Part shown: in pieces, positions 2,197 through 62,884 of the stretch
Layout: the number at the start of each line of letters is the position of its first letter
Numbering within the stretch: the first letter of the stretch is position 1
Origin: Candidatus Coproplasma sp.
GTDB taxonomy: Bacteria > Bacillota > Clostridia > Christensenellales > Borkfalkiaceae
Direction of reading: 5' to 3'
Length of the DNA stretch: 64,000 nucleotides
NCBI GenBank assembly: GCA_051884175.1
Contig: JBJEVD010000054.1
Span: 2,294 to 66,293, forward strand
Notes under the pieces: model-generated
What the model saw: only the letters and a program-made list of their open reading frames with translations
The model's database searches: none
What the model was told of the DNA's origin: nothing
Program-made: the position numbers and the translations under genes

Positions 2197-2556
2197 TTAC
2201 TCATAGTCGTCAAAGTTTCTGCGGTTGTCGCAGGGGTTGCATGGTGCGCACGGGTCAGGGGGAGGGCACCGTCTGCATGGGTCGGGCGGAGGACAATCGG
2301 GCTTGTTGTCCTTGCCCTTTTTCGGCTTTTCCCCTGTTTTAACCAATATTGCGTCCTCGCCAACTTTAACAATATCCGAAAGGGGAATAAATATTTCCGT
2401 CTTTGTAAACTTAATACCCTTACAGCCCGTTGCAGTAAAGCCCTTTATTTTACCTTCGGGTAGAGTAAAAGTAACGTCGCAAAACTTACCGAGGTTTTTG
2501 CCGTCGGAAAGGGAAATAACGTCTAATTTTTTAAGCTTGCTGAATAAAAATTCCAT
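2197..2556 (-). CDS. YlmC/YmxH-family (PRC-barrel) sporulation protein with a Cys/Pro-rich C-terminal tail
   Basis: The N-terminal roughly 75 aa (KLDVISLSDGKNLGKFCDVTF...GFTATG...IPLSDIVKVGEDAILV) match the YlmC/YmxH pattern. The tail reads PDCPPPDPCRRCPPPDPCAPCNPCD. Confidence 0.78.
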   Translation of the reverse strand: MEFLFSKLKKLDVISLSDGKNLGKFCDVTFTLPEGKIKGFTATGCKGIKFTKTEIFIPLSDIVKVGEDAILVKTGEKPKKGKDNKPDCPPPDPCRRCPPPDPCAPCNPCDNRRNFDDYE

Positions 2557-18951: not shown

Positions 18952-19677
18952 TCAATTTTTTTCCGGCAAAAATTTCCAATACCGAACGGGCATATAACCC
19001 TTCATCTGCTTTTCGTGCGGTCGGGATAGGATGTTGACAGATTTATAGTACCGTTTCCACAAATCCTCGAAATACTTCTCGTATTCCGAAAGGTAAATTT
19101 CAGCGTCCTCGACCCTCGTCATAACAATCTCTTCCCCGTCGTACAGGGCAGCAATCTTCCTCTTCACGTCGTGTATGACGAATTTCTGTCCTCCAAGCCG
19201 TTCGGCAAAGTGTACGGATAGCATATCGGTTATATCGTTGTCGGGCGAATAGGGGGCGTACAGCACTCCGTCGGCATTCTCCATAAACCGCAAAAACCCC
19301 TTCATGCGGTGCGTTTCACCCGTAACTTTAGATATTGTATCCGTCGCCTCCAGCACTCTCGGGTCAGCCTGCATATTGCGCACCGCACCGCTGTTTTTTA
19401 CTATTAACTTTACGTAAGCGAAGGCAATGTTCTCTTTAAGCGGGTCGCAGCTTCTTAGCAGCAGTTTAACGTCGTTTAACGCACCTGCGTCCAATAGAGC
19501 AAGTTTTCGTCTTACCCGTTCAGCCTTTTGGCTGTCCGGTTTAACTTCAACAAGCTCACACCCCAGTCCCAGCTGAACGTCGCCCGAAGAAGTAATTATG
19601 CAGTCCTCGTTTTTATAGGCGTCAAAGACGGCTGTATAAAAGCCGTCCTTGGTGCCGTCTGTAATGTAATACGTCAT
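18952..19677 (-). CDS. TIGR03915/DUF4130-family probable DNA metabolism protein (partner of the radical SAM protein)
   Basis: 241 aa with the MTYYITDGTKDGFYTAVFDAY N-terminus. It overlaps the stop of the upstream radical SAM gene by 4 nt. I recognise this pairing as a conserved two-gene cassette. Confidence 0.72.
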   Translation of the reverse strand: MTYYITDGTKDGFYTAVFDAYKNEDCIITSSGDVQLGLGCELVEVKPDSQKAERVRRKLALLDAGALNDVKLLLRSCDPLKENIAFAYVKLIVKNSGAVRNMQADPRVLEATDTISKVTGETHRMKGFLRFMENADGVLYAPYSPDNDITDMLSVHFAERLGGQKFVIHDVKRKIAALYDGEEIVMTRVEDAEIYLSEYEKYFEDLWKRYYKSVNILSRPHEKQMKGYMPVRYWKFLPEKN

Positions 19678-20933
19678 ATCTCACCTGTAAGGGCAGAAAG
19701 CGCAACCGAAGGGGAGGAGAACATAGAAAGCTGTTCGGCGTTTTCGCCTCGCTCCTGTAACGTTAAAGATGCGTTGACCGTACTTACGTTATCCGAGCCG
19801 TAAAATTTCCCCTTGCAGGTAATAAAGTGTTTCGCCCTCTTAAGTATTATGCGCATTTTTGCAAGATTATCAAAGTCGAGGGCGGTATATTTTCTCGCCT
19901 CGGTAATGCGGTAGGCACCCCTCGCCCCGATACCCGGTACCCTTAAAAGGTTTTCAAGCGGTGCGGTGTTGACCTCCACGGGAAACAGCTCCATATGCCT
20001 TAACGCCCAGGCGCACTTGGGGTCAAGCTCGGGGGAAAGGTTTTCGCCCTCGCCGCATATCTCGTCTACGTTAAATCCGTAAAAGCGTATCAGCCAATCG
20101 GCTTGATACAGCCTGTGTTCCCTTAAAAGTCCGGCCCCGACCTGCGGCAGTTTGTCGCTTTGAACGACGGGGATATAGGAGGAGTAGTACACCCTCTTCA
20201 GTCCCATACGTCGGTACAGTGCCTCGGTAAGCCGCAAAATCTGTCCGTCGCTCTCGGGCGAGGCACCTACAATCATCTGCGTTGTCTGCCCTGCAGGTAT
20301 AACCCTGTGACTGTGCTTAACCTTGTTTTCCTTGTCATAGCAAATCGCCTCGCTCAGCTTTTTCATAGGCAAAAGCAAGCTGTCCTTGGTCTTTTGCGGT
20401 GCAAGCAGCTTAAGCGATTTTTCGCTGGGCAATTCGACGTTAAAGCTCATTCTGTCCACGTATTTTGCCGCCCGCATGATGAGTGCGTCGTCGGCGTGGG
20501 GTATGCCCTTCAGATGAATATACCCGTTAAAATTGTAAATCTTTCTAAGTTTTATAACCGTGTCGGTGAGTAGTTCCATAGTGCGGTTAGGCGAAGAGAA
20601 CACCGCAGAGGAGAGGAACAGCCCCTCGATATAATTTCGTTTGTAAAAGTTAATAGTCAGCTCGCAGATCTCGTCGGGTGTAATCGTCGCCCTTGCTACG
20701 TCCGCGCTGCGCCTGTTCGGACAGTATTCGCAGTCGTACAGGCAGGCGTTGCTCATTAAAATTTTCAAAAGGGATATACATCTTCCGTCGGGGGTAAAGG
20801 AGTGACAAATTCCCCCAACGGAAGCGTTACCCAATCCCCCTTTCGTGTTCACCCGTTTTGAACCCGAAGAGGAGCAGGAGACGTCGTACTTCGCGCTTTC
20901 GGTCAATATTTCAAGTCTGTTTGCGTCAAGCAT
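19674..20933 (-). CDS. Putative DNA modification/repair radical SAM protein (TIGR03916-like) with a C-terminal helix-hairpin-helix
   Basis: A CLYDCEYCPNRR (CxxxCxxC) motif is present, and LLRVPGIGARGAYRI is HhH-like. AGAGGAAG precedes the ATG at 20933. The longer track ORF (to 20981) would run through the promoter and operator. Confidence 0.8.
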   Translation of the reverse strand: MLDANRLEILTESAKYDVSCSSSGSKRVNTKGGLGNASVGGICHSFTPDGRCISLLKILMSNACLYDCEYCPNRRSADVARATITPDEICELTINFYKRNYIEGLFLSSAVFSSPNRTMELLTDTVIKLRKIYNFNGYIHLKGIPHADDALIMRAAKYVDRMSFNVELPSEKSLKLLAPQKTKDSLLLPMKKLSEAICYDKENKVKHSHRVIPAGQTTQMIVGASPESDGQILRLTEALYRRMGLKRVYYSSYIPVVQSDKLPQVGAGLLREHRLYQADWLIRFYGFNVDEICGEGENLSPELDPKCAWALRHMELFPVEVNTAPLENLLRVPGIGARGAYRITEARKYTALDFDNLAKMRIILKRAKHFITCKGKFYGSDNVSTVNASLTLQERGENAEQLSMFSSPSVALSALTGEI

Positions 20934-20948
20934 ATCTTCGCTTCCTCT

Positions 20949-20964
20949 ACAAACATATGTTTGT
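20949..20964. promoter_or_regulatory. Perfect 16-bp palindrome ACAAACATATGTTTGT, a candidate operator (LexA-box-like)
   Basis: It lies between the predicted -10 and the RBS of the radical SAM operon. It resembles the Gram-positive SOS box CGAACATATGTTCG, with AAAC/GTTT arms. Confidence 0.5.
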
Positions 20965-20971
20965 ATTGAAT

Positions 20972-21000
20972 ATGATATCACATAAAAACAGCTTTGTCAA
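20972..21000 (-). promoter_or_regulatory. Sigma-A-type promoter for the radical SAM operon
   Basis: On the minus strand: TTGACA (21000-20995), a 17-nt spacer, then TATCAT (20977-20972) with a TG extension. Confidence 0.55.
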
Positions 21001-56499: not shown

Positions 56500-56528
56500 T
56501 TGAAATTTTGCAATACCTATGATATAAT
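56500..56528 (+). promoter_or_regulatory. Sigma-A-type promoter for the rubrerythrin gene
   Basis: TTGAAA, a 17-nt spacer, then TATAAT with a TGA extension. Confidence 0.6.
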
Positions 56529-56569: not shown

Positions 56570-57097
56570 ATGAAAAGATGTACCGTTTGCGGCGAAATCG
56601 TTGCTGATGACGTAGACGTTTGCCCCGTATGCAAGGCTAAGACTTTTGCACCCGTAGAAGAAAAGGCAGGTTATGCCTGCGAACATCACGTAGGCGACGG
56701 CGTGGTTGACGACGCTGAAGTTATGGCAGGTCTTAGGGCACATTTTACCGGTGAATGTACCGAAGTCGGTATGTACCTCGCTATGGCAAGAGTTGCAGAA
56801 AGAGAGGGCTATCCCGAAGTTGCAGAAGCTTTCAAGCGTTATGCTTATGAAGAAGCTGATCACGCATCCAAGTTCGCAGAGCTTTTGGGCGAAGTGGTTA
56901 CTCCTTCTACCGAGAAGAACTTACAGCTTCGTGCAGAGGCTGAAGCAGGTGCTTGCGAAGGTAAGCTTGCTATTGCAAAGCGCGCTAAACAGCTCGGCTA
57001 CGACGCTATTCACGACACCGTTCACGAAATGGCAAAAGACGAGGCTCGCCACGGCGCAGGCTTCTCCGGTCTTTTGAAGAGATATTTCGGCAAATAA
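56570..57097 (+). CDS. Reverse rubrerythrin (N-terminal rubredoxin-like Cys4, C-terminal diiron ferritin-like domain)
   Basis: CTVCG...CPVCKA is followed by the diiron ligand motifs EEADHASKF and DEARH. Confidence 0.85.
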
Positions 57098-57114: not shown

Positions 57115-57150
57115 ACGCTCCGCACTGCTAAGTGCGGAGCGTTATTTTAT
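57115..57150 (+). terminator. Intrinsic terminator after the rubrerythrin gene
   Basis: ACGCTCCGCAC pairs with GTGCGGAGCGT and is followed by TATTTTAT. Confidence 0.75.
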
Positions 57151-57151
57151 C

Positions 57152-57179
57152 ACCATATAATAAGAATAAGCATATTATA
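57152..57179 (+). promoter_or_regulatory. Possible sigma-K-type promoter upstream of the Cys-rich repeat gene
   Basis: AC (57152-57153), a 17-nt spacer, then CATATTATA (57171-57179), compared with the consensus AC-16/17-CATAnnnTA. A TATAAT hexamer without a -35 is also present at 57156-57161. Confidence 0.3.
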
Positions 57180-57239
57180 AACTATAGGGTCAGGCGGAAA
57201 AACTTGCCCCTTAATACCAAAGCAAAGGAAAGTTTATAT

Positions 57240-57713
57240 ATGTGTTTTTGCGGTAACTTTGGCAACAGTTGCGGCTGTTCGGGTTTATTCTCCATATTAA
57301 GCGGTTGCAACTCCTGCAATTGGAACAATTGGCGTAGCGGCTGTAATTCCTGCGGCTGCAACACCTGGCGTAGCGGTTGTAACGGATGCGGCTGCAATTC
57401 CTGCGGCTGCAACACCTGGCGTAACGGTTGTAACGGATGCGGCTGTAATTCCTGCGGCTGCAACACCTGGCGTAGCGGTTGTAACGGATGCGGCTGCAAT
57501 TCCTGCGGCTGCAACACCTGGCGTAACGGTTGTAACGGATGTGGCTGCAATTCTTGCGGCTGCAACACCTGGCGTAGCGGCTGTAACGATTGCGATTGCA
57601 ACGGCTGTTCGTGCAGTACAGGTACGTGCGGCGTAGGCTGGACTGGTAACGGGTGGAGCAGAAGCGGTTGTTCTTCGTGCAGATGCAATAGCTGTAATAG
57701 CTGTAGTTGTTAA
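57240..57713 (+). CDS. Cysteine-rich tandem-repeat protein (157 aa, about 41 Cys), family and function unknown
   Basis: AAGGAA lies 9 nt upstream of the ATG at 57240, the stop is TAA at 57711-57713, and clean terminators lie on both sides. The product is MCFCGNFGNSCGCSG..., then (GCNGCGCNSCGCNTWR[S/N])n, then ...CSSCRCNSCNSCSC. Confidence 0.7.
   Translation: MCFCGNFGNSCGCSGLFSILSGCNSCNWNNWRSGCNSCGCNTWRSGCNGCGCNSCGCNTWRNGCNGCGCNSCGCNTWRSGCNGCGCNSCGCNTWRNGCNGCGCNSCGCNTWRSGCNDCDCNGCSCSTGTCGVGWTGNGWSRSGCSSCRCNSCNSCSC
57330..57600 (+). repeat. 51-bp tandem repeat array inside the Cys-rich gene
   Basis: TGG codons recur at 57366, 57417, 57468, 57519 and 57570, exactly 51 bp apart. A 36-bp shortened unit lies at 57330-57365. 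AGC and AAC alternate, giving a 102-bp super-repeat. Confidence 0.92.
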
Positions 57714-57725
57714 ATAATTTAACCG

Positions 57726-57754
57726 TACGGGGGTGGGTACACCCCCGTATTTTT
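57726..57754 (+). terminator. Intrinsic terminator after the Cys-rich gene
   Basis: TACGGGGG pairs with CCCCCGTA and is followed by TTTTT. Confidence 0.8.
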
Positions 57755-57790
57755 AGTATATCAATGTTTGTAAATGCCAAAAATATATGT

Positions 57791-58606
57791 ATGCGGACAA
57801 TAATAAAAGAGTTCAGATATTATTCGGATAAACGCTTTACAACGCTTTCGGGTACGCTTGTATACTTTTTTCTTATGTCTGTCACGCCGTTTTTCTTCTG
57901 GCTTGCGCTGATAGTGGGAGATTTCGATTTGAGCCGGTTTCTGTCTGACGATTTATTCTCTGTTATTCAGCCGGTAATTGGTGCTCTGCAACAGGCGGCA
58001 GTCAGTGCGACGGGCAGTGCAACACTCATTTTATTGCTAACCTCGCTCTGGTCGTCAACAAACTTTTTCTACCATCTGCGCAGAAGCGGGGAGATTATCT
58101 TTGCCCCAAACGTCAAGACGGGTGCAATCAAGCTGCGCATAAGCGCGATGTTTGCGGTGTTTGCGATTTTATTGATTGCAGCCCTCGCCGCAGTAACGCC
58201 CTTTTTAGGTGTAAACGTTTTGGAAATGATAATGCCCCGACCTATAGCCGAGGCAATTACAATGATATTTTTAACTATGTTTGCATTCTTCGCGTCCTAT
58301 TTTTTAAACGTCTTTGCCTGTCCGTATAAGCTCAATTGCTCTCAGGCGAGCGGAGGTGCGCTTTTAACCGTAATACTATGGATACTGTTTGCGATTGGAT
58401 TTAAGGTTTATTTGCAATTTTCCAACCCACAAAGGCTGTACGGTGCAATAACCGCAGTAATAGTCTTTCTGCTCTGGTGTTATCTCATGATAAACAGCCT
58501 GGTTATAGGTTTAATTTATAATTCAAAGTACCTTATAAAAAACTCAATACTTGATGCAGCAAGCGCAGGCAAGCGCACCGGGACCGATATGGCAGGCAAC
58601 CGATAA
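57791..58606 (+). CDS. YihY/BrkB-family integral membrane protein
   Basis: MRTIIKEFRYYSDKRFTTLSGTLVYFFLMSVTPF is the typical family N-terminus, and there are about 6 TM helices. The start is uncertain (57764 is an alternative). The track start at 57707 lies before the terminator. Confidence 0.7.
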   Translation: MRTIIKEFRYYSDKRFTTLSGTLVYFFLMSVTPFFFWLALIVGDFDLSRFLSDDLFSVIQPVIGALQQAAVSATGSATLILLLTSLWSSTNFFYHLRRSGEIIFAPNVKTGAIKLRISAMFAVFAILLIAALAAVTPFLGVNVLEMIMPRPIAEAITMIFLTMFAFFASYFLNVFACPYKLNCSQASGGALLTVILWILFAIGFKVYLQFSNPQRLYGAITAVIVFLLWCYLMINSLVIGLIYNSKYLIKNSILDAASAGKRTGTDMAGNR

Positions 58607-59419
58607 GGACAGGGGGTCTACGTAGCGCAGCTCGCAGTCGGGGAAAGCGGCTTTAAGCTCCTCGGCAAACTGGTTTGCGTCATCCAAACAGTTGGTGTGT
58701 GCAACGGCAATTACCATTTTACCGTTATCGCGATAGGGTTTAAAACGCCCTTCAAGGTCATTTTTAAGTGCGCCTATCATCGTCGTCTTTGCGTCTGAAA
58801 GCTTTCTTACCTTAGCGTATTGGTCAAGCACTTCGCCTTGAATTTGCAACACGGGTTTAATCTTCAAAAGCGTACCGATTGCCGCAACGGCAGGGGTTAA
58901 TCTTCCGCTCTTTTTCAAGAACTTCAAGGTATTGACCGCGATATATATGGAAGAAATTCTGGAGGTCTCGTTCAGCCAGTCGTAAACTTCTTTCGCGCTT
59001 TTGCCCTCTTCAAGCATCTTAAGCGCGTCGAATACGGTCTGTTTCTGCGTAACCGAAACTCTGTGATTGTCGAGGGCGTAAACTCTGCCTTTGAATTCCT
59101 CTTCGGTTTCCGCCATATTTTTAATGGTAAGTGCCGTCTGCGAAAGTCCGCTGGAGAGGGGAAGGTAGATAATATTATCATACGTCTTTAACAGTCTGCG
59201 GAAACGCTCTGCAACGTCGTAGGGGTTGGGTTGAGAGGTGGCAACGGTTGCGTTATCGTCGTTTAAGCTCTCGTAAAACCGGGCTTGCGTAAAACCCTCT
59301 TCCTCGAAGTATTGCTGTCCGTTGAGTAAAACGGGGGTGGGCTGAATTTCAATACCCAGCTCTTTTGCGTAATCTACGGTTATTCCGCAGTTGCTGTCTG
59401 TAACAATAATAGTTTTCAT
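58544..59419 (-). CDS. DegV-family fatty-acid-binding protein (paralog 1)
   Basis: IIVTDSNCGI, SSGLSQT and GRLTPAVAAIGTLLKIKPVL motifs are present. Confidence 0.9.
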   Translation of the reverse strand: MKTIIVTDSNCGITVDYAKELGIEIQPTPVLLNGQQYFEEEGFTQARFYESLNDDNATVATSQPNPYDVAERFRRLLKTYDNIIYLPLSSGLSQTALTIKNMAETEEEFKGRVYALDNHRVSVTQKQTVFDALKMLEEGKSAKEVYDWLNETSRISSIYIAVNTLKFLKKSGRLTPAVAAIGTLLKIKPVLQIQGEVLDQYAKVRKLSDAKTTMIGALKNDLEGRFKPYRDNGKMVIAVAHTNCLDDANQFAEELKAAFPDCELRYVDPLSLSVACHIGPGALACACCIKY

Positions 59420-59505
59420 TTGTTCTCCCTTAAATCATATTATGAGTATAAATTAATATTTTTTAAAAGTCCGCTCCTCAATTTATGCGGAACGGACGTA
59501 ATTTA

Positions 59506-60372
59506 TCAGTATTTTACCGTTGCGGCACAGGCAAGAGCCCCGGGACCGATATGGCAGGAAACGCTTAAGGATAGGGGGTTAATGAACGTAAACTCTACGT
59601 CGGGGAAGGCTGCCTTCAACTCACGGGCAAAAACTTCAGCCTCTTCAAAGTTTTCCGTATGAGCTACTGCAACTGTCATCTTACCTGCTTTGCGAAGGTC
59701 GGCAAATCTCTCGTCAAAGTCCTTGATAAGTGCAGAAATCATAGTTTTCTTTGCGTCTGCAAGCTTTCTTACCTTAGCAAACTGGTCAAGCTTAAAGCCC
59801 TGAATGGTTAGCACGGGTTTAATCTTCAAAAGTGTTCCGATTGCGGCTACGGCAGGGGTTAACCTTCCGCCCTTTTTAAGGTATTTAAGCGTATCCACCA
59901 TAATATAGATGGAGGACTGCATCTTCGTATCCAAAAGGTAATCTCTTATCTCTTCAGCCGTCTTGCCGTCCTTAATCATTGCAATAGCGTCCATAATCGA
60001 CTGCTTTTGCGTTATAGAAATACGCTGGTTATCTATAACGTAAACCTTACCTGCAAATTCGGTTTCGGCAAGGTTAGATAGCGTTGCGCAGGTCTGGGAA
60101 AGACCGCTGGACATAGGGATATGAATTATTTTGTCGTAATCCTTTAAAACCTCCGTCCAAAGCTCGCCAACGTCGTACGCGCTGGGCTGAGAGGTAGAAA
60201 CGGAAGCGTCGCTCTTCAGCTTTTCGTAGAACTCTTCCTGCGATAAAGAAATGTCTTCAAAATACTGTTCGCCGTCTATTAAAAAGGGCATAGGCACGAC
60301 GAAAATGCCAAGCTCTTTAGCTTCGCTCTGGGTTATTCCGCTGTTACTGTCCGTCACTATTGCGGTTTTCAT
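59506..60372 (-). CDS. DegV-family fatty-acid-binding protein (paralog 2)
   Basis: It shares the same motifs and is roughly half to 60 percent identical to paralog 1 by eye. Confidence 0.9.
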   Translation of the reverse strand: MKTAIVTDSNSGITQSEAKELGIFVVPMPFLIDGEQYFEDISLSQEEFYEKLKSDASVSTSQPSAYDVGELWTEVLKDYDKIIHIPMSSGLSQTCATLSNLAETEFAGKVYVIDNQRISITQKQSIMDAIAMIKDGKTAEEIRDYLLDTKMQSSIYIMVDTLKYLKKGGRLTPAVAAIGTLLKIKPVLTIQGFKLDQFAKVRKLADAKKTMISALIKDFDERFADLRKAGKMTVAVAHTENFEEAEVFARELKAAFPDVEFTFINPLSLSVSCHIGPGALACAATVKY

Positions 60373-62269: not shown

Positions 62270-62884
62270 TTACTTCTCAACCGTAACCTTTACGAAATCT
62301 TCCTTGCCGTGTTTGCACAAAGGGCAGATAAAGTCGTCGGGCAGTTCCTCGCCCTCGTATTCGTAACCGCAGACAGAACATCTCCAAACCGTTTTAGTCG
62401 CCTTTTGGGGTTGAGGTTTTATTGAGGAGTGGTAGTAGGCATAGGTTGCAGAGGGGTCTTTTGTCAAAGTCTGTCCGTCGATAACCTCTGCAATAAACAG
62501 GGTGTGGGTGGGGAAGTCTACGGTGTTTATAACCTTTGCACACATATATGCGTTTGTACCCTCGGTTATATAGTAAAGCCCGTTGTTCGCCCTCTTAGCC
62601 TGAGAGTAATCTGCAAATTTGTTTGCATTTGCTCCGCTCTGGAAGCCGAACCTTTTAAAGAGTTCAAAGTCGGCTTTTTGAGAGATGACGCTTACGCAGA
62701 ACTCACCCGTTCTCATAATCATTCCGTGGGTATAATTTGCCTTGTTAACCGCCAGCGTTATGACGTTTGGCGTCGTTGTAACCTGTTGAACGGTGTTGGT
62801 TATGCAGCCGTTATCAACCCCGTTTTCTTTTGCCGTAACCACAAAAAGTCCGTAGGTTAAAGCTCTCATACAAGAATTATCCAT
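62270..62884 (-). CDS. Flavin reductase domain fused to a C-terminal rubredoxin (high-molecular-weight rubredoxin, Hrb-like)
   Basis: The N-terminus is a flavin-reductase-like FMN-binding fold. The C-terminus WRCSVCGYEY...CPLCKHGKEDF is a rubredoxin. Confidence 0.8.
   Translation of the reverse strand: MDNSCMRALTYGLFVVTAKENGVDNGCITNTVQQVTTTPNVITLAVNKANYTHGMIMRTGEFCVSVISQKADFELFKRFGFQSGANANKFADYSQAKRANNGLYYITEGTNAYMCAKVINTVDFPTHTLFIAEVIDGQTLTKDPSATYAYYHSSIKPQPQKATKTVWRCSVCGYEYEGEELPDDFICPLCKHGKEDFVKVTVEK

Follow-up and report, generated by a model that had tools for sequence, protein, structure and literature searches.

Cysteine-rich proteins stabilised by disulfides are a recurrent, convergent solution in the building of spore envelopes (including CotY/ExsY and CsxA/CsxC/CdeC). 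In Clostridioides difficile, CdeM (CD1581) has 161 aa, of which 8.7% are Cys, lacks a conserved domain and is unique to the species; its low-complexity Asn/Gly/Cys repeats take the forms NGNNGGNNNNC and CNCCNCCRK. Both cdeM and cdeC (CD1067) are monocistronic and have sigma-K promoters, cdeM lying between non-sporulation genes of amino-acid biosynthesis; in a sigK mutant, expression falls to 0.01 (cdeM) and 0.03 (cdeC) of the wild-type level (a ~30- to 100-fold drop). The two proteins are morphogenetic for the exosporium and have been proposed to cross-link the envelope via disulfides. Here, a stretch of 64,000 nucleotides from Candidatus Coproplasma sp. (contig JBJEVD010000054.1; the whole stretch is termed the window and positions are counted from its first letter) was analysed, in which an uncalled gene encodes a tandem-repeat protein of 157 aa with 41 Cys. 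The protein is best regarded, by analogy, as an extreme form of the already known sigma-K-controlled, Cys-rich spore-envelope proteins, for which a functional analogue exists in CdeM/CdeC of C. difficile. Its role as a late-sporulation protein that cross-links the spore envelope through disulfides (or metal thiolates) is favoured tentatively, with expression and location predicted from the features described below.

By these features CdeM is the closest analogue: both proteins are small, lineage-restricted, encoded by monocistronic genes among housekeeping genes and composed of Asn/Gly/Cys repeats. Nevertheless, Cys makes up 8.7-9% of CdeM/CdeC as against 20-27% of the window family, which is about three times denser. 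CdeM has acidic as well as basic repeats (RREA, CHK), whereas the window family carries nearly no charge except Arg and, unlike CdeM, is arranged in regular tandem units of 12, 13 or 17 aa with Trp-Arg linkers. Expression and location are experimental for CdeM/CdeC and inferred from sequence for the window family; furthermore, no homology to CdeM or CdeC appeared in the results of phmmer and profile searches (1.8 and 5.8 billion proteins).

Other Cys-rich or repetitive systems offer partial likenesses. CotY/CotZ/ExsY (Bacilli) and the CsxA/CsxC SPOCS proteins (DUF3794, Clostridia) are made in the mother cell without a signal peptide and form a Cys-rich envelope with cooperative disulfides, the mother-cell and envelope part of this likeness being a prediction for the window protein. 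CotY/ExsY/CsxA are, however, folded domains in two- or three-dimensional crystals (CsxA with ~25 Cys per subunit), whereas the window protein is of low complexity, matched neither the CotY/ExsY nor the DUF3794 domain in Pfam/NCBIfam at E<=10 and gave no confident AlphaFold2 fold. The ultra-high-sulfur keratin-associated proteins of mammalian hair combine >20-30% Cys with Gly/Ser, carry short tandem Cys repeats in variable number and serve as disulfide cross-linkers of the matrix of a tough material outside the cell; being eukaryotic and unrelated in sequence, they offer an analogy of mechanism alone. CotG-like coat proteins of Bacillus are late mother-cell products of monocistronic genes, positively charged and of low complexity, with central repeats that vary between species. 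Their repeats are rich in Lys/Ser/Arg, phosphorylated by CotH and free of Cys, and they have no sequence similarity to the window protein.

The gene, its product and its relatives

The open reading frame (ORF) reported originally, from ATG 57240 to TAA 57713 with AAGGAA 9 nt upstream and a product of 157 aa, is read directly from the sequence (Table 1). The composition of the product is C41 (26.1%), G31, N27, S23, W9, R8, T8, F3, L2, D2, M1, I1 and V1, while H, K, E, P, A, Y and Q are all absent, which agrees with the earlier count of about 41 Cys and no His. No second ORF of comparable Cys density is found within the 64-kb window. The N-terminal patch SGLFSILSG is short and hydrophobic/amphipathic, with a helical hydrophobic moment of 0.9-1.5 as against 0.4-0.55 for beta periodicity; being too short and too uncharged, it is not taken for a signal peptide or a transmembrane (TM) segment. 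Hydropathy and run-length checks likewise detected neither in the window protein, as had been claimed (best 19-residue hydropathy ~1.0, longest hydrophobic run 2-3 residues, first 15 residues without K or R).

Table 1. Features of the Cys-rich gene and its flanks, in window positions
Feature	Position	Strand	Details
Terminator of the upstream rubrerythrin gene	57115-57150 (stem 57115-57142 + T-run)	+	12-bp stem, 8 GC pairs
Predicted mother-cell-type (sigma-K-like) promoter	57150-57179	+	-35 block tCACCATATA (AC 57152-57153), 17-nt spacer, -10 CATATTATA 57171-57179
Leader stem-loop, predicted mRNA 5' end	57187-57210	+	8 bp, GGGTCAGG...CTTGCCCC
Ribosome-binding site AAGGAAAG	57225-57232	+	AAGGAA at 57225-57230, 8-9 nt 5' of ATG
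Coding sequence, Cys-rich protein	57240-57713 (ATG 57240, TAA 57711-57713)	+	157 aa, 41 Cys
N-terminal module, aa 1-34	57240-57341	+	MCFC..., patch SGLFSILSG, then CNSCNWNNWRSG
Tandem-repeat core, aa 35-114	57342-57581	+	one 12-aa unit CNSCGCNTWRSG, then four 17-aa units CNGCGCNSCGCNTWR(S/N)G
C-terminal module, aa 115-157	57582-57710	+	...GVGWTGNGWSRSGCSSCRCNSCNSCSC
Terminator of the Cys-rich gene	57725-57756 (stem 57725-57750 + T-run)	+	11-bp stem, 7 GC pairs

The core had been described as four exact-length copies with degenerate copies on both sides, and Tandem Repeats Finder (51-nt unit, 4.9 copies, 57337-57588, 95% matches, score 455) together with the copy layout, in which four 17-aa units follow one of 12 aa, bears this out. 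The grammar of the repeat consists of C-N-x-C-G pentapeptides closed by C-N-T-W-R-x-G, and the Cys spacings of the protein comprise 15 CxC and 15 CxxC with almost no others. At the DNA level, copy 1 equals copy 3 and copy 2 equals copy 4 (an exact duplication of 102 nt), and differences between copies are mostly synonymous (TGT/TGC, TCC/TCT, GGT/GGC); to judge from this identity, the 102-nt double unit is a recent duplication. Such exact duplication within an array makes the copy number uncertain in a short-read assembly. Furthermore, in the metagenome-assembled genome (MAG) CAMAHZ01 one contig ends in the array (L088, 3198-3361) and another starts in it (L046, 1-340), i.e., the orthologue is split over two contigs. 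Since the array broke the short-read assembly of CAMAHZ01, array copy numbers, including that of the window, are to be treated as uncertain.

The pattern search proposed originally was run as a DNA scan for C-N-x-C-G-C-N-x-W across 185,579 species-representative genomes and yielded 93 matches, mostly due to chance. The true orthologues among them came from four Candidatus Coproplasma MAGs (L008, L032, L050 and L066; the name of the genus comes from chicken-gut MAGs), the uncultured Clostridia MAG mentioned above (L088/L046) and, in a divergent form, two mouse-gut MAGs (L006 and L065). All of these relatives occupy the same locus (YchF-ArgS-HAD-rubrerythrin-gene-YihY-DegV), with synteny holding over the whole span and ArgS identity to the window ranging from 95% (L032) to 75% (L006). 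At the Coproplasma-group loci the neighbours are 85-99% identical and the Cys-rich protein only ~50%. The ATG, the ribosome-binding site (RBS) and both end modules are kept: AAGGAAA of the RBS is unchanged in 8/8 aligned loci, the N-terminal module is collinear in every Coproplasma-group orthologue alignment, the C-terminal WTG(N/S)GW...RSGCSSC motif is retained in all Coproplasma-group orthologues, and at least eight independent assemblies agree in start, RBS, frame and end modules. The number of repeat units varies from species to species.

Taken by itself, the open frame of the window is weak evidence, as the repeat alone suffices to leave the antisense frames open too. In the orthologues, these antisense frames gain stops, and the Cys frame is the sole stop-free frame in 6/6 full-length sequences. 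Over the collinear, non-repeat N-terminal 33 codons, the ratio of nonsynonymous to synonymous divergence (dN/dS) is 0.05-0.33 in 15/15 pairs, with the proportion of synonymous differences (pS) reaching 0.7. Judged from these alignments, the gene is protein-coding and under purifying selection.

Searches of databases placed the protein in no described family. The window protein, its N-terminal module, the L006 protein and two sets of small look-alike ORFs (L035 and L082, described below) matched zero Pfam and NCBIfam families at E<=10, and a word-index protein search with the window protein returned 0 matches. When 1.84 billion representatives were searched exhaustively with phmmer, 11 matches came up, all false and none Cys-rich; these are unrelated tandem-repeat proteins, mostly with a period of ~17 residues (eukaryotic junk ORFs and Bacteroidota surface repeats). 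As an observation of wider relevance, the tandem-repeat query drew E-values down to 1.5e-13 from unrelated proteins, a warning for the automated annotation of repeat proteins. A phmmer search of the PDB gave only a spurious match to a protein kinase C C1 domain and no metallothionein chain, an Rfam search with leader and gene gave nothing close to the gathering score, and one motif scan of Joint Genome Institute metagenomes gave three identical chance matches and no added members. According to a local control, default phmmer run on the full library would give the Coproplasma orthologues E-values of 1e-20 to 1e-33; the absence of these orthologues from the protein databases is therefore real (unsampled MAGs, uncalled genes). 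On exact look-up, neither the 157-aa product nor a GTG-extended form nor either of the antisense ORFs was present in a collection of 15 billion proteins, whereas ArgS and rubrerythrin of the same contig were, so the gene is uncalled in its own genome. The earlier statement that the protein belongs to no known family, being neither an SmtA/BmtA metallothionein nor a SCIFF peptide (six cysteines in forty-five residues) nor a CotY/ExsY protein, stands: no matching family model was found at E<=10, and homology to a characterised family surfaced neither in the phmmer and profile searches nor in the curated-family searches. On the strength of these searches, the window protein represents a new sequence family, assigned to no known family by the curated databases or by two billion-scale protein searches.

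Apart from the orthologues at the YchF-DegV locus, the breadth of the family was assessed by the phmmer and profile searches cited above, the first query being the protein of L006, which is less repetitive, and the next a profile of seven sequences (A2). Two called relatives were found, P0014 (under the NCBI name 'hypothetical protein') and P0015, which share with the family the MC-x-C start and a short amphipathic patch, ALLNELSSAIRNLF. Both have tandem G-C-G-C-G-C-N-x-N-R-S-G-N units (3 units vs 4) and, in common with L006/L065, end in YYAxQYGLCNS-C in place of the Coproplasma-group C-terminus. Their subfamily lies between two terminators in the context RNase Y-gene-YitT-NrdR. In the gene call of P0015 (L098, 2425-2931), 37 spurious residues precede the true N-terminus, as no in-frame stop interrupts the conserved leader. 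Family-wide, the proteins have 108-157 aa, 20-27% Cys, a net charge of +4 to +6 and CxC/CxxC throughout. The architecture is fixed: the MC-x-C module with the amphipathic patch is followed by variable C-N-x-C-G / C-N-x-W-R-x-G units with alternating CxxC/CxC and by a Cys-rich C-terminal module. These sequences suggest an undescribed, fast-evolving family of ultra-Cys-rich, positively charged, low-complexity proteins in uncultured gut Clostridia (the Coproplasma lineage and relatives). A lipoprotein assignment, to which an LSGC motif might point, was rejected, as the first 15 residues contain no K/R, the hydrophobic run is <=3 and LSGC is absent in L050 and P0014.

Transcription signals

According to Saujet et al. 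(2013; PMC3789822), a -10 box is common to sigma-E and sigma-K of C. difficile, CATATTAT being the 'canonical -10 box for mother cell sigma factors', with CATATAAT as the -10 box of sigK P2; at -35, sigma-K has AC and sigma-E has ATA. Upstream of the Cys-rich gene, AC-N17-CATATTATA (57152-57179) fits the sigma-K consensus published for that species and is thus a candidate mother-cell promoter. The blocks tCACCATATA and GCATATTATAAACTATAGGG are unchanged in 6/6 Coproplasma-group sequences, and the spacer between them is constant in length and variable in sequence; conserved blocks separated by a length-constant, variable spacer are therefore read as a promoter footprint. CATA-type -10 boxes recur in other lineages of the family and stand 47-69 nt before the start in 5/6 independent contexts, and the look-alike ORFs carry AC-N16-CATAGGATA, a textbook sigma-K-type motif (L035 ORF1), and CATAGAATA (L082).

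A sigma-A -35 was not detected at the Cys-rich gene, whereas vegetative neighbours in the window have canonical sigma-A promoters (for example, TTGAAA-17-TG-TATAAT of rubrerythrin, 56500-56528). The mother-cell promoter suggested by the original prediction is strengthened by the conserved blocks, the variable spacer, the published box and the CATA-type boxes of other lineages. The -35-less TATAAT offered as its alternative (57156-57161) is present in the window and not conserved in orthologues, which weakens it. The other sporulation genes of the window provided too few usable cases for an internal calibration of sigma-E/sigma-K promoters. They include SigE (351.8 bits, over the curated cutoff), SigG and a SpoIIGA fragment, in line with the claim that the genome is that of a sporeformer.

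The strong terminators reported on both sides of the gene were recovered, each with a T-run behind its stem. The one that follows rubrerythrin is retained with compensated stem changes at all orthologous loci and would insulate the Cys-rich gene from upstream transcription; terminators equivalent to the downstream one lie 3' of the gene in L097 and L098. Between these signals, the gene is predicted to form a stand-alone, monocistronic, terminator-flanked transcription unit. Its leader of ~55 nt is conserved, and RNAalifold gave the leader stem a consensus energy of -8.8 kcal/mol with compensatory changes in 2/8 pairs (6 sequences); the stem-loop possibly acts as a 5' stabiliser.

Functional readings and their weight

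In the proposed mechanism, transcription would depend on a sporulation sigma factor of the mother cell, with sigma-K as the likeliest candidate, and the protein would be made late in the mother-cell cytoplasm, a site of synthesis for which no signal peptide is needed. It would then become part of the outer layers of the spore (coat, crust or exosporium). Docking would be provided by the short helix at the N-terminus and the conserved module at the C-terminus, while the repeat core would form a spacer and cross-link array that can expand and whose length shifts by slippage. With ~40 thiols per chain, the protein could act as a high-density cross-linker comparable to the ultra-high-sulfur proteins of hair, forming inter-chain disulfides, and possibly metal-thiolate bridges as well, once the spore of this strict anaerobe is outside the reducing surroundings of mother cell or gut. 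The outcome would be a hardened envelope and a sacrificial thiol shield. Traits of a coat-type protein are seen in the missing signal peptide and TM segment of the window protein and in the positive net charge, Cys content and species-variable repeat number of the family. The original suggestion of a late-sporulation coat or crust component or a metal-thiolate protein is supported in part: the gene is real, and the reading of its promoter as one of mother-cell type is strengthened; expression, location and the choice between disulfide and metal chemistry stay at the level of prediction.

Several points weigh against this account. The sigma-K motif is not significant by itself (3 matches vs 1.7 expected in the window), so the weight of the promoter reading rests on conservation. 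L006/L065 carry CATATAAT with no AC at 16-17 nt, and in L097/L098 the spacer is 18 nt (AC-N18-CATATCATA); the promoter may be one for sigma-E instead of sigma-K, or even a -10-only sigma-A promoter, and sigK is not among the genes of the window. AlphaFold2 gave no confident fold for the window protein (mean predicted local distance difference test score, pLDDT, of 45; predicted template modelling score of 0.42) or for P0014 (pLDDT 36), and the beta-strands of the repeats, considered in comparison with a disulfide-braced beta-solenoid of the insect antifreeze kind, are predicted at a pLDDT of 50-60 only. Furthermore, known Cys-rich envelope proteins have ~9% Cys and not 26%, the best-studied of them (CsxA, CotY/ExsY) build ordered arrays, and the alternating CxC/CxxC grammar would suit metal-thiolate clusters equally well. 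The host is uncultured, and both expression and spore localisation are predicted.

A bolder version of the cross-linking account, considered rather doubtful, would make the protein a bacterial equivalent of the ultra-high-sulfur keratin-associated proteins: a dedicated, expandable thiol-array protein that makes up a large share of the spore envelope in strictly anaerobic gut Clostridia. It would be reduced or metal-loaded in the gut and 'air-cure' to a disulfide shell on shedding, and it would belong to a wider class of small, sigma-K-driven Cys/Asn/Gly-rich genes largely missed by callers and databases.

The main rival, in itself unlikely, is a metallothionein-like metal-thiolate protein for metal buffering or storage, with CxxCxCxxCxC blocks folded around Zn(II), Cu(I), Cd(II) or Fe-S-type clusters and one bead formed by each 17-aa unit. 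Such a protein could be either cytoplasmic or a metal-loaded spore component, the latter overlapping with the cross-linker favoured here. Like SmtA/BmtA and the fungal Cu(I)-metallothioneins, the window protein combines a very high Cys content, nearly all of it in CxC and CxxC, with a remainder of mostly Gly, Ser and Asn and probably has no ligand-free fold, none having been predicted. The resemblance to fungal Cu-metallothioneins is nevertheless compositional and non-significant by BLASTP against a provisional sequence of the Neurospora crassa protein (e.g., SGCSSCRCNS/SGASSCNCGS, E = 0.45), and no metallothionein family of Pfam/NCBIfam matches even at E<=10. The 9 Trp and 3 Phe (7.6% aromatics), the mass of 16 kDa and the arrangement of 41 Cys in tandem units are atypical of metallothioneins, and His is absent, unlike in BmtA/SmtA. 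Similarly, the conserved neighbourhood contains no metal-sensing regulator (ArsR/SmtB, CsoR, MerR), efflux pump or riboswitch, and the promoter looks sporulation-specific rather than metal-responsive. In group A, at the YchF-DegV locus, the gene does adjoin that of a metalloprotein, rubrerythrin, a proximity of which the original prediction had left the meaning undecided. A family-wide functional link was rejected, as rubrerythrin has its own sigma-A promoter, a conserved terminator separates the two genes and the neighbour is missing in the RNase Y-linked subfamily.

A non-sporulation role is less probable still; an example would be a cytoplasmic protein that buffers thiols or takes up oxidants in an anaerobe, made during vegetative growth or under stress from a -10-dominated sigma-A promoter. 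In its favour, the -10 regions (TATTAT, TATAAT, TATCAT) also resemble sigma-A hexamers, the sigma-K-type AC is missing in L006/L065, the sigma-K motif count is non-significant, and the surroundings are of a housekeeping/oxidative-stress nature (rubrerythrin; a flavin reductase-rubredoxin gene at 62270-62884). However, sigma-A promoters of this genome carry clear -35 boxes and the Cys-rich gene none, the sigma-K AC stands at the correct 17-nt spacing in 6/6 Coproplasma-group sequences, and cdeM illustrates that a housekeeping setting is common for coat genes under sigma-K control.

The repeated, core-like Cys units with Asn/Cys motifs, the small size and the lack of a known family would also suit a multi-core precursor of a ribosomally synthesised and post-translationally modified peptide (ranthipeptide-, sactipeptide- or SCIFF-like). 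This reading is highly improbable: the conserved neighbourhoods consist of housekeeping genes only, without a radical-SAM/SPASM maturase, protease or exporter, no leader peptide or cleavage motif is seen, and neither SCIFF nor other precursor models match. The claim that no maturase lies nearby was upheld, since the sole radical-SAM gene of the window (19677-20981) is of the DNA-repair type TIGR03916 (585 bits), 36 kb away. Finally, a non-functional ORF arising from stop-free tandem-repeat DNA or from an assembly artefact, to which the open antisense frames, the uncalled status of the gene and a 102-nt duplication that could reflect mis-assembly might point, is scarcely credible in view of the shared start, RBS, frame and end modules, a dN/dS far under 1 in the non-repeat part, the antisense stops of orthologues and the conservation of promoter, leader and terminators. 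The assembly-artefact concern raised originally can in effect be dismissed for the entire gene, as judged from its orthologues, and persists for the exact copy number of the repeat alone.

Look-alike genes, neighbours and implications

Small Cys-rich ORFs of similar flavour were met in two other loci. In a Peptococcaceae MAG, two adjoining tiny ORFs (L035, 824-1069 and 1417-1698) combine the TM cores LIMLIIIIWLL and WIWWIIIFVIFLFFI with CGCN motifs and may represent a class of their own among small, Cys-rich membrane proteins of sporulation. A Cys/Asn-rich ORF of 77 aa (L082, 5387-5620, minus strand; ...CNRCRCNSCGCNNW...) has its CATAGAATA box 52 nt before the start and lies directly downstream of yunB (TIGR02832, 5668-6267, minus strand), near a DacB-like carboxypeptidase. 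The L035 and L082 ORFs may belong to a wider class together with the family. The idea that the hydrophobic patch is YjcZ-like was discarded, as neither the N-terminal module nor the L035 ORFs have an NCBIfam match and the window protein is without a TM segment. P0016, which is secreted, contains CGCN and has its gene upstream of a ribosomal-protein operon, was judged unrelated (E ~1).

Several neighbours within the window deserve a record of their own. Rubrerythrin (56570-57097, plus strand) carries a rubredoxin-like CxxC...CxxC at its N-terminus, i.e., the 'reverse' domain order, and scores weakly against the NCBIfam model (41.8 bits vs a cutoff of 200). Downstream of yihY, two tandem DegV paralogues (58544-60372, minus strand) are present in the window and in L046, while L050 and L006 have one; the duplication thus appears to vary inside the lineage. 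At 18955-20981 (minus strand), the TIGR03916 radical-SAM gene and a TIGR03915 partner form a putative DNA modification/repair pair linked to uracil-DNA glycosylase, with no relation to the Cys-rich gene. A sporulation protein of the YlmC/YmxH family (PRC-barrel; 2197-2556, minus strand) has a Cys/Pro-rich C-terminal tail, KPDCPPPDPCRRCPPPDPCAPCNPCDNRR, past the end of the family model.

Low-complexity sporulation genes of such kind are under-represented in protein databases, as seen from the window gene being uncalled, a relative being mis-extended and billion-scale searches returning false positives; discovery of the family took a DNA-level motif scan combined with synteny. Predicted tryptic peptides (for example, SGCNGCGCNSCGCNTWR) provide a concrete target for metaproteomics. 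If the spore-envelope reading is true, the cysteine-rich cross-linker principle of spore envelopes would reach an extreme (26% Cys, tandem-repeat and apparently unfolded) and would extend to a gut lineage, that of Coproplasma and its relatives, which is uncultured and little known. The protein would then be a candidate for oxygen-triggered robustness of the spores of strict anaerobes during host-to-host transmission.

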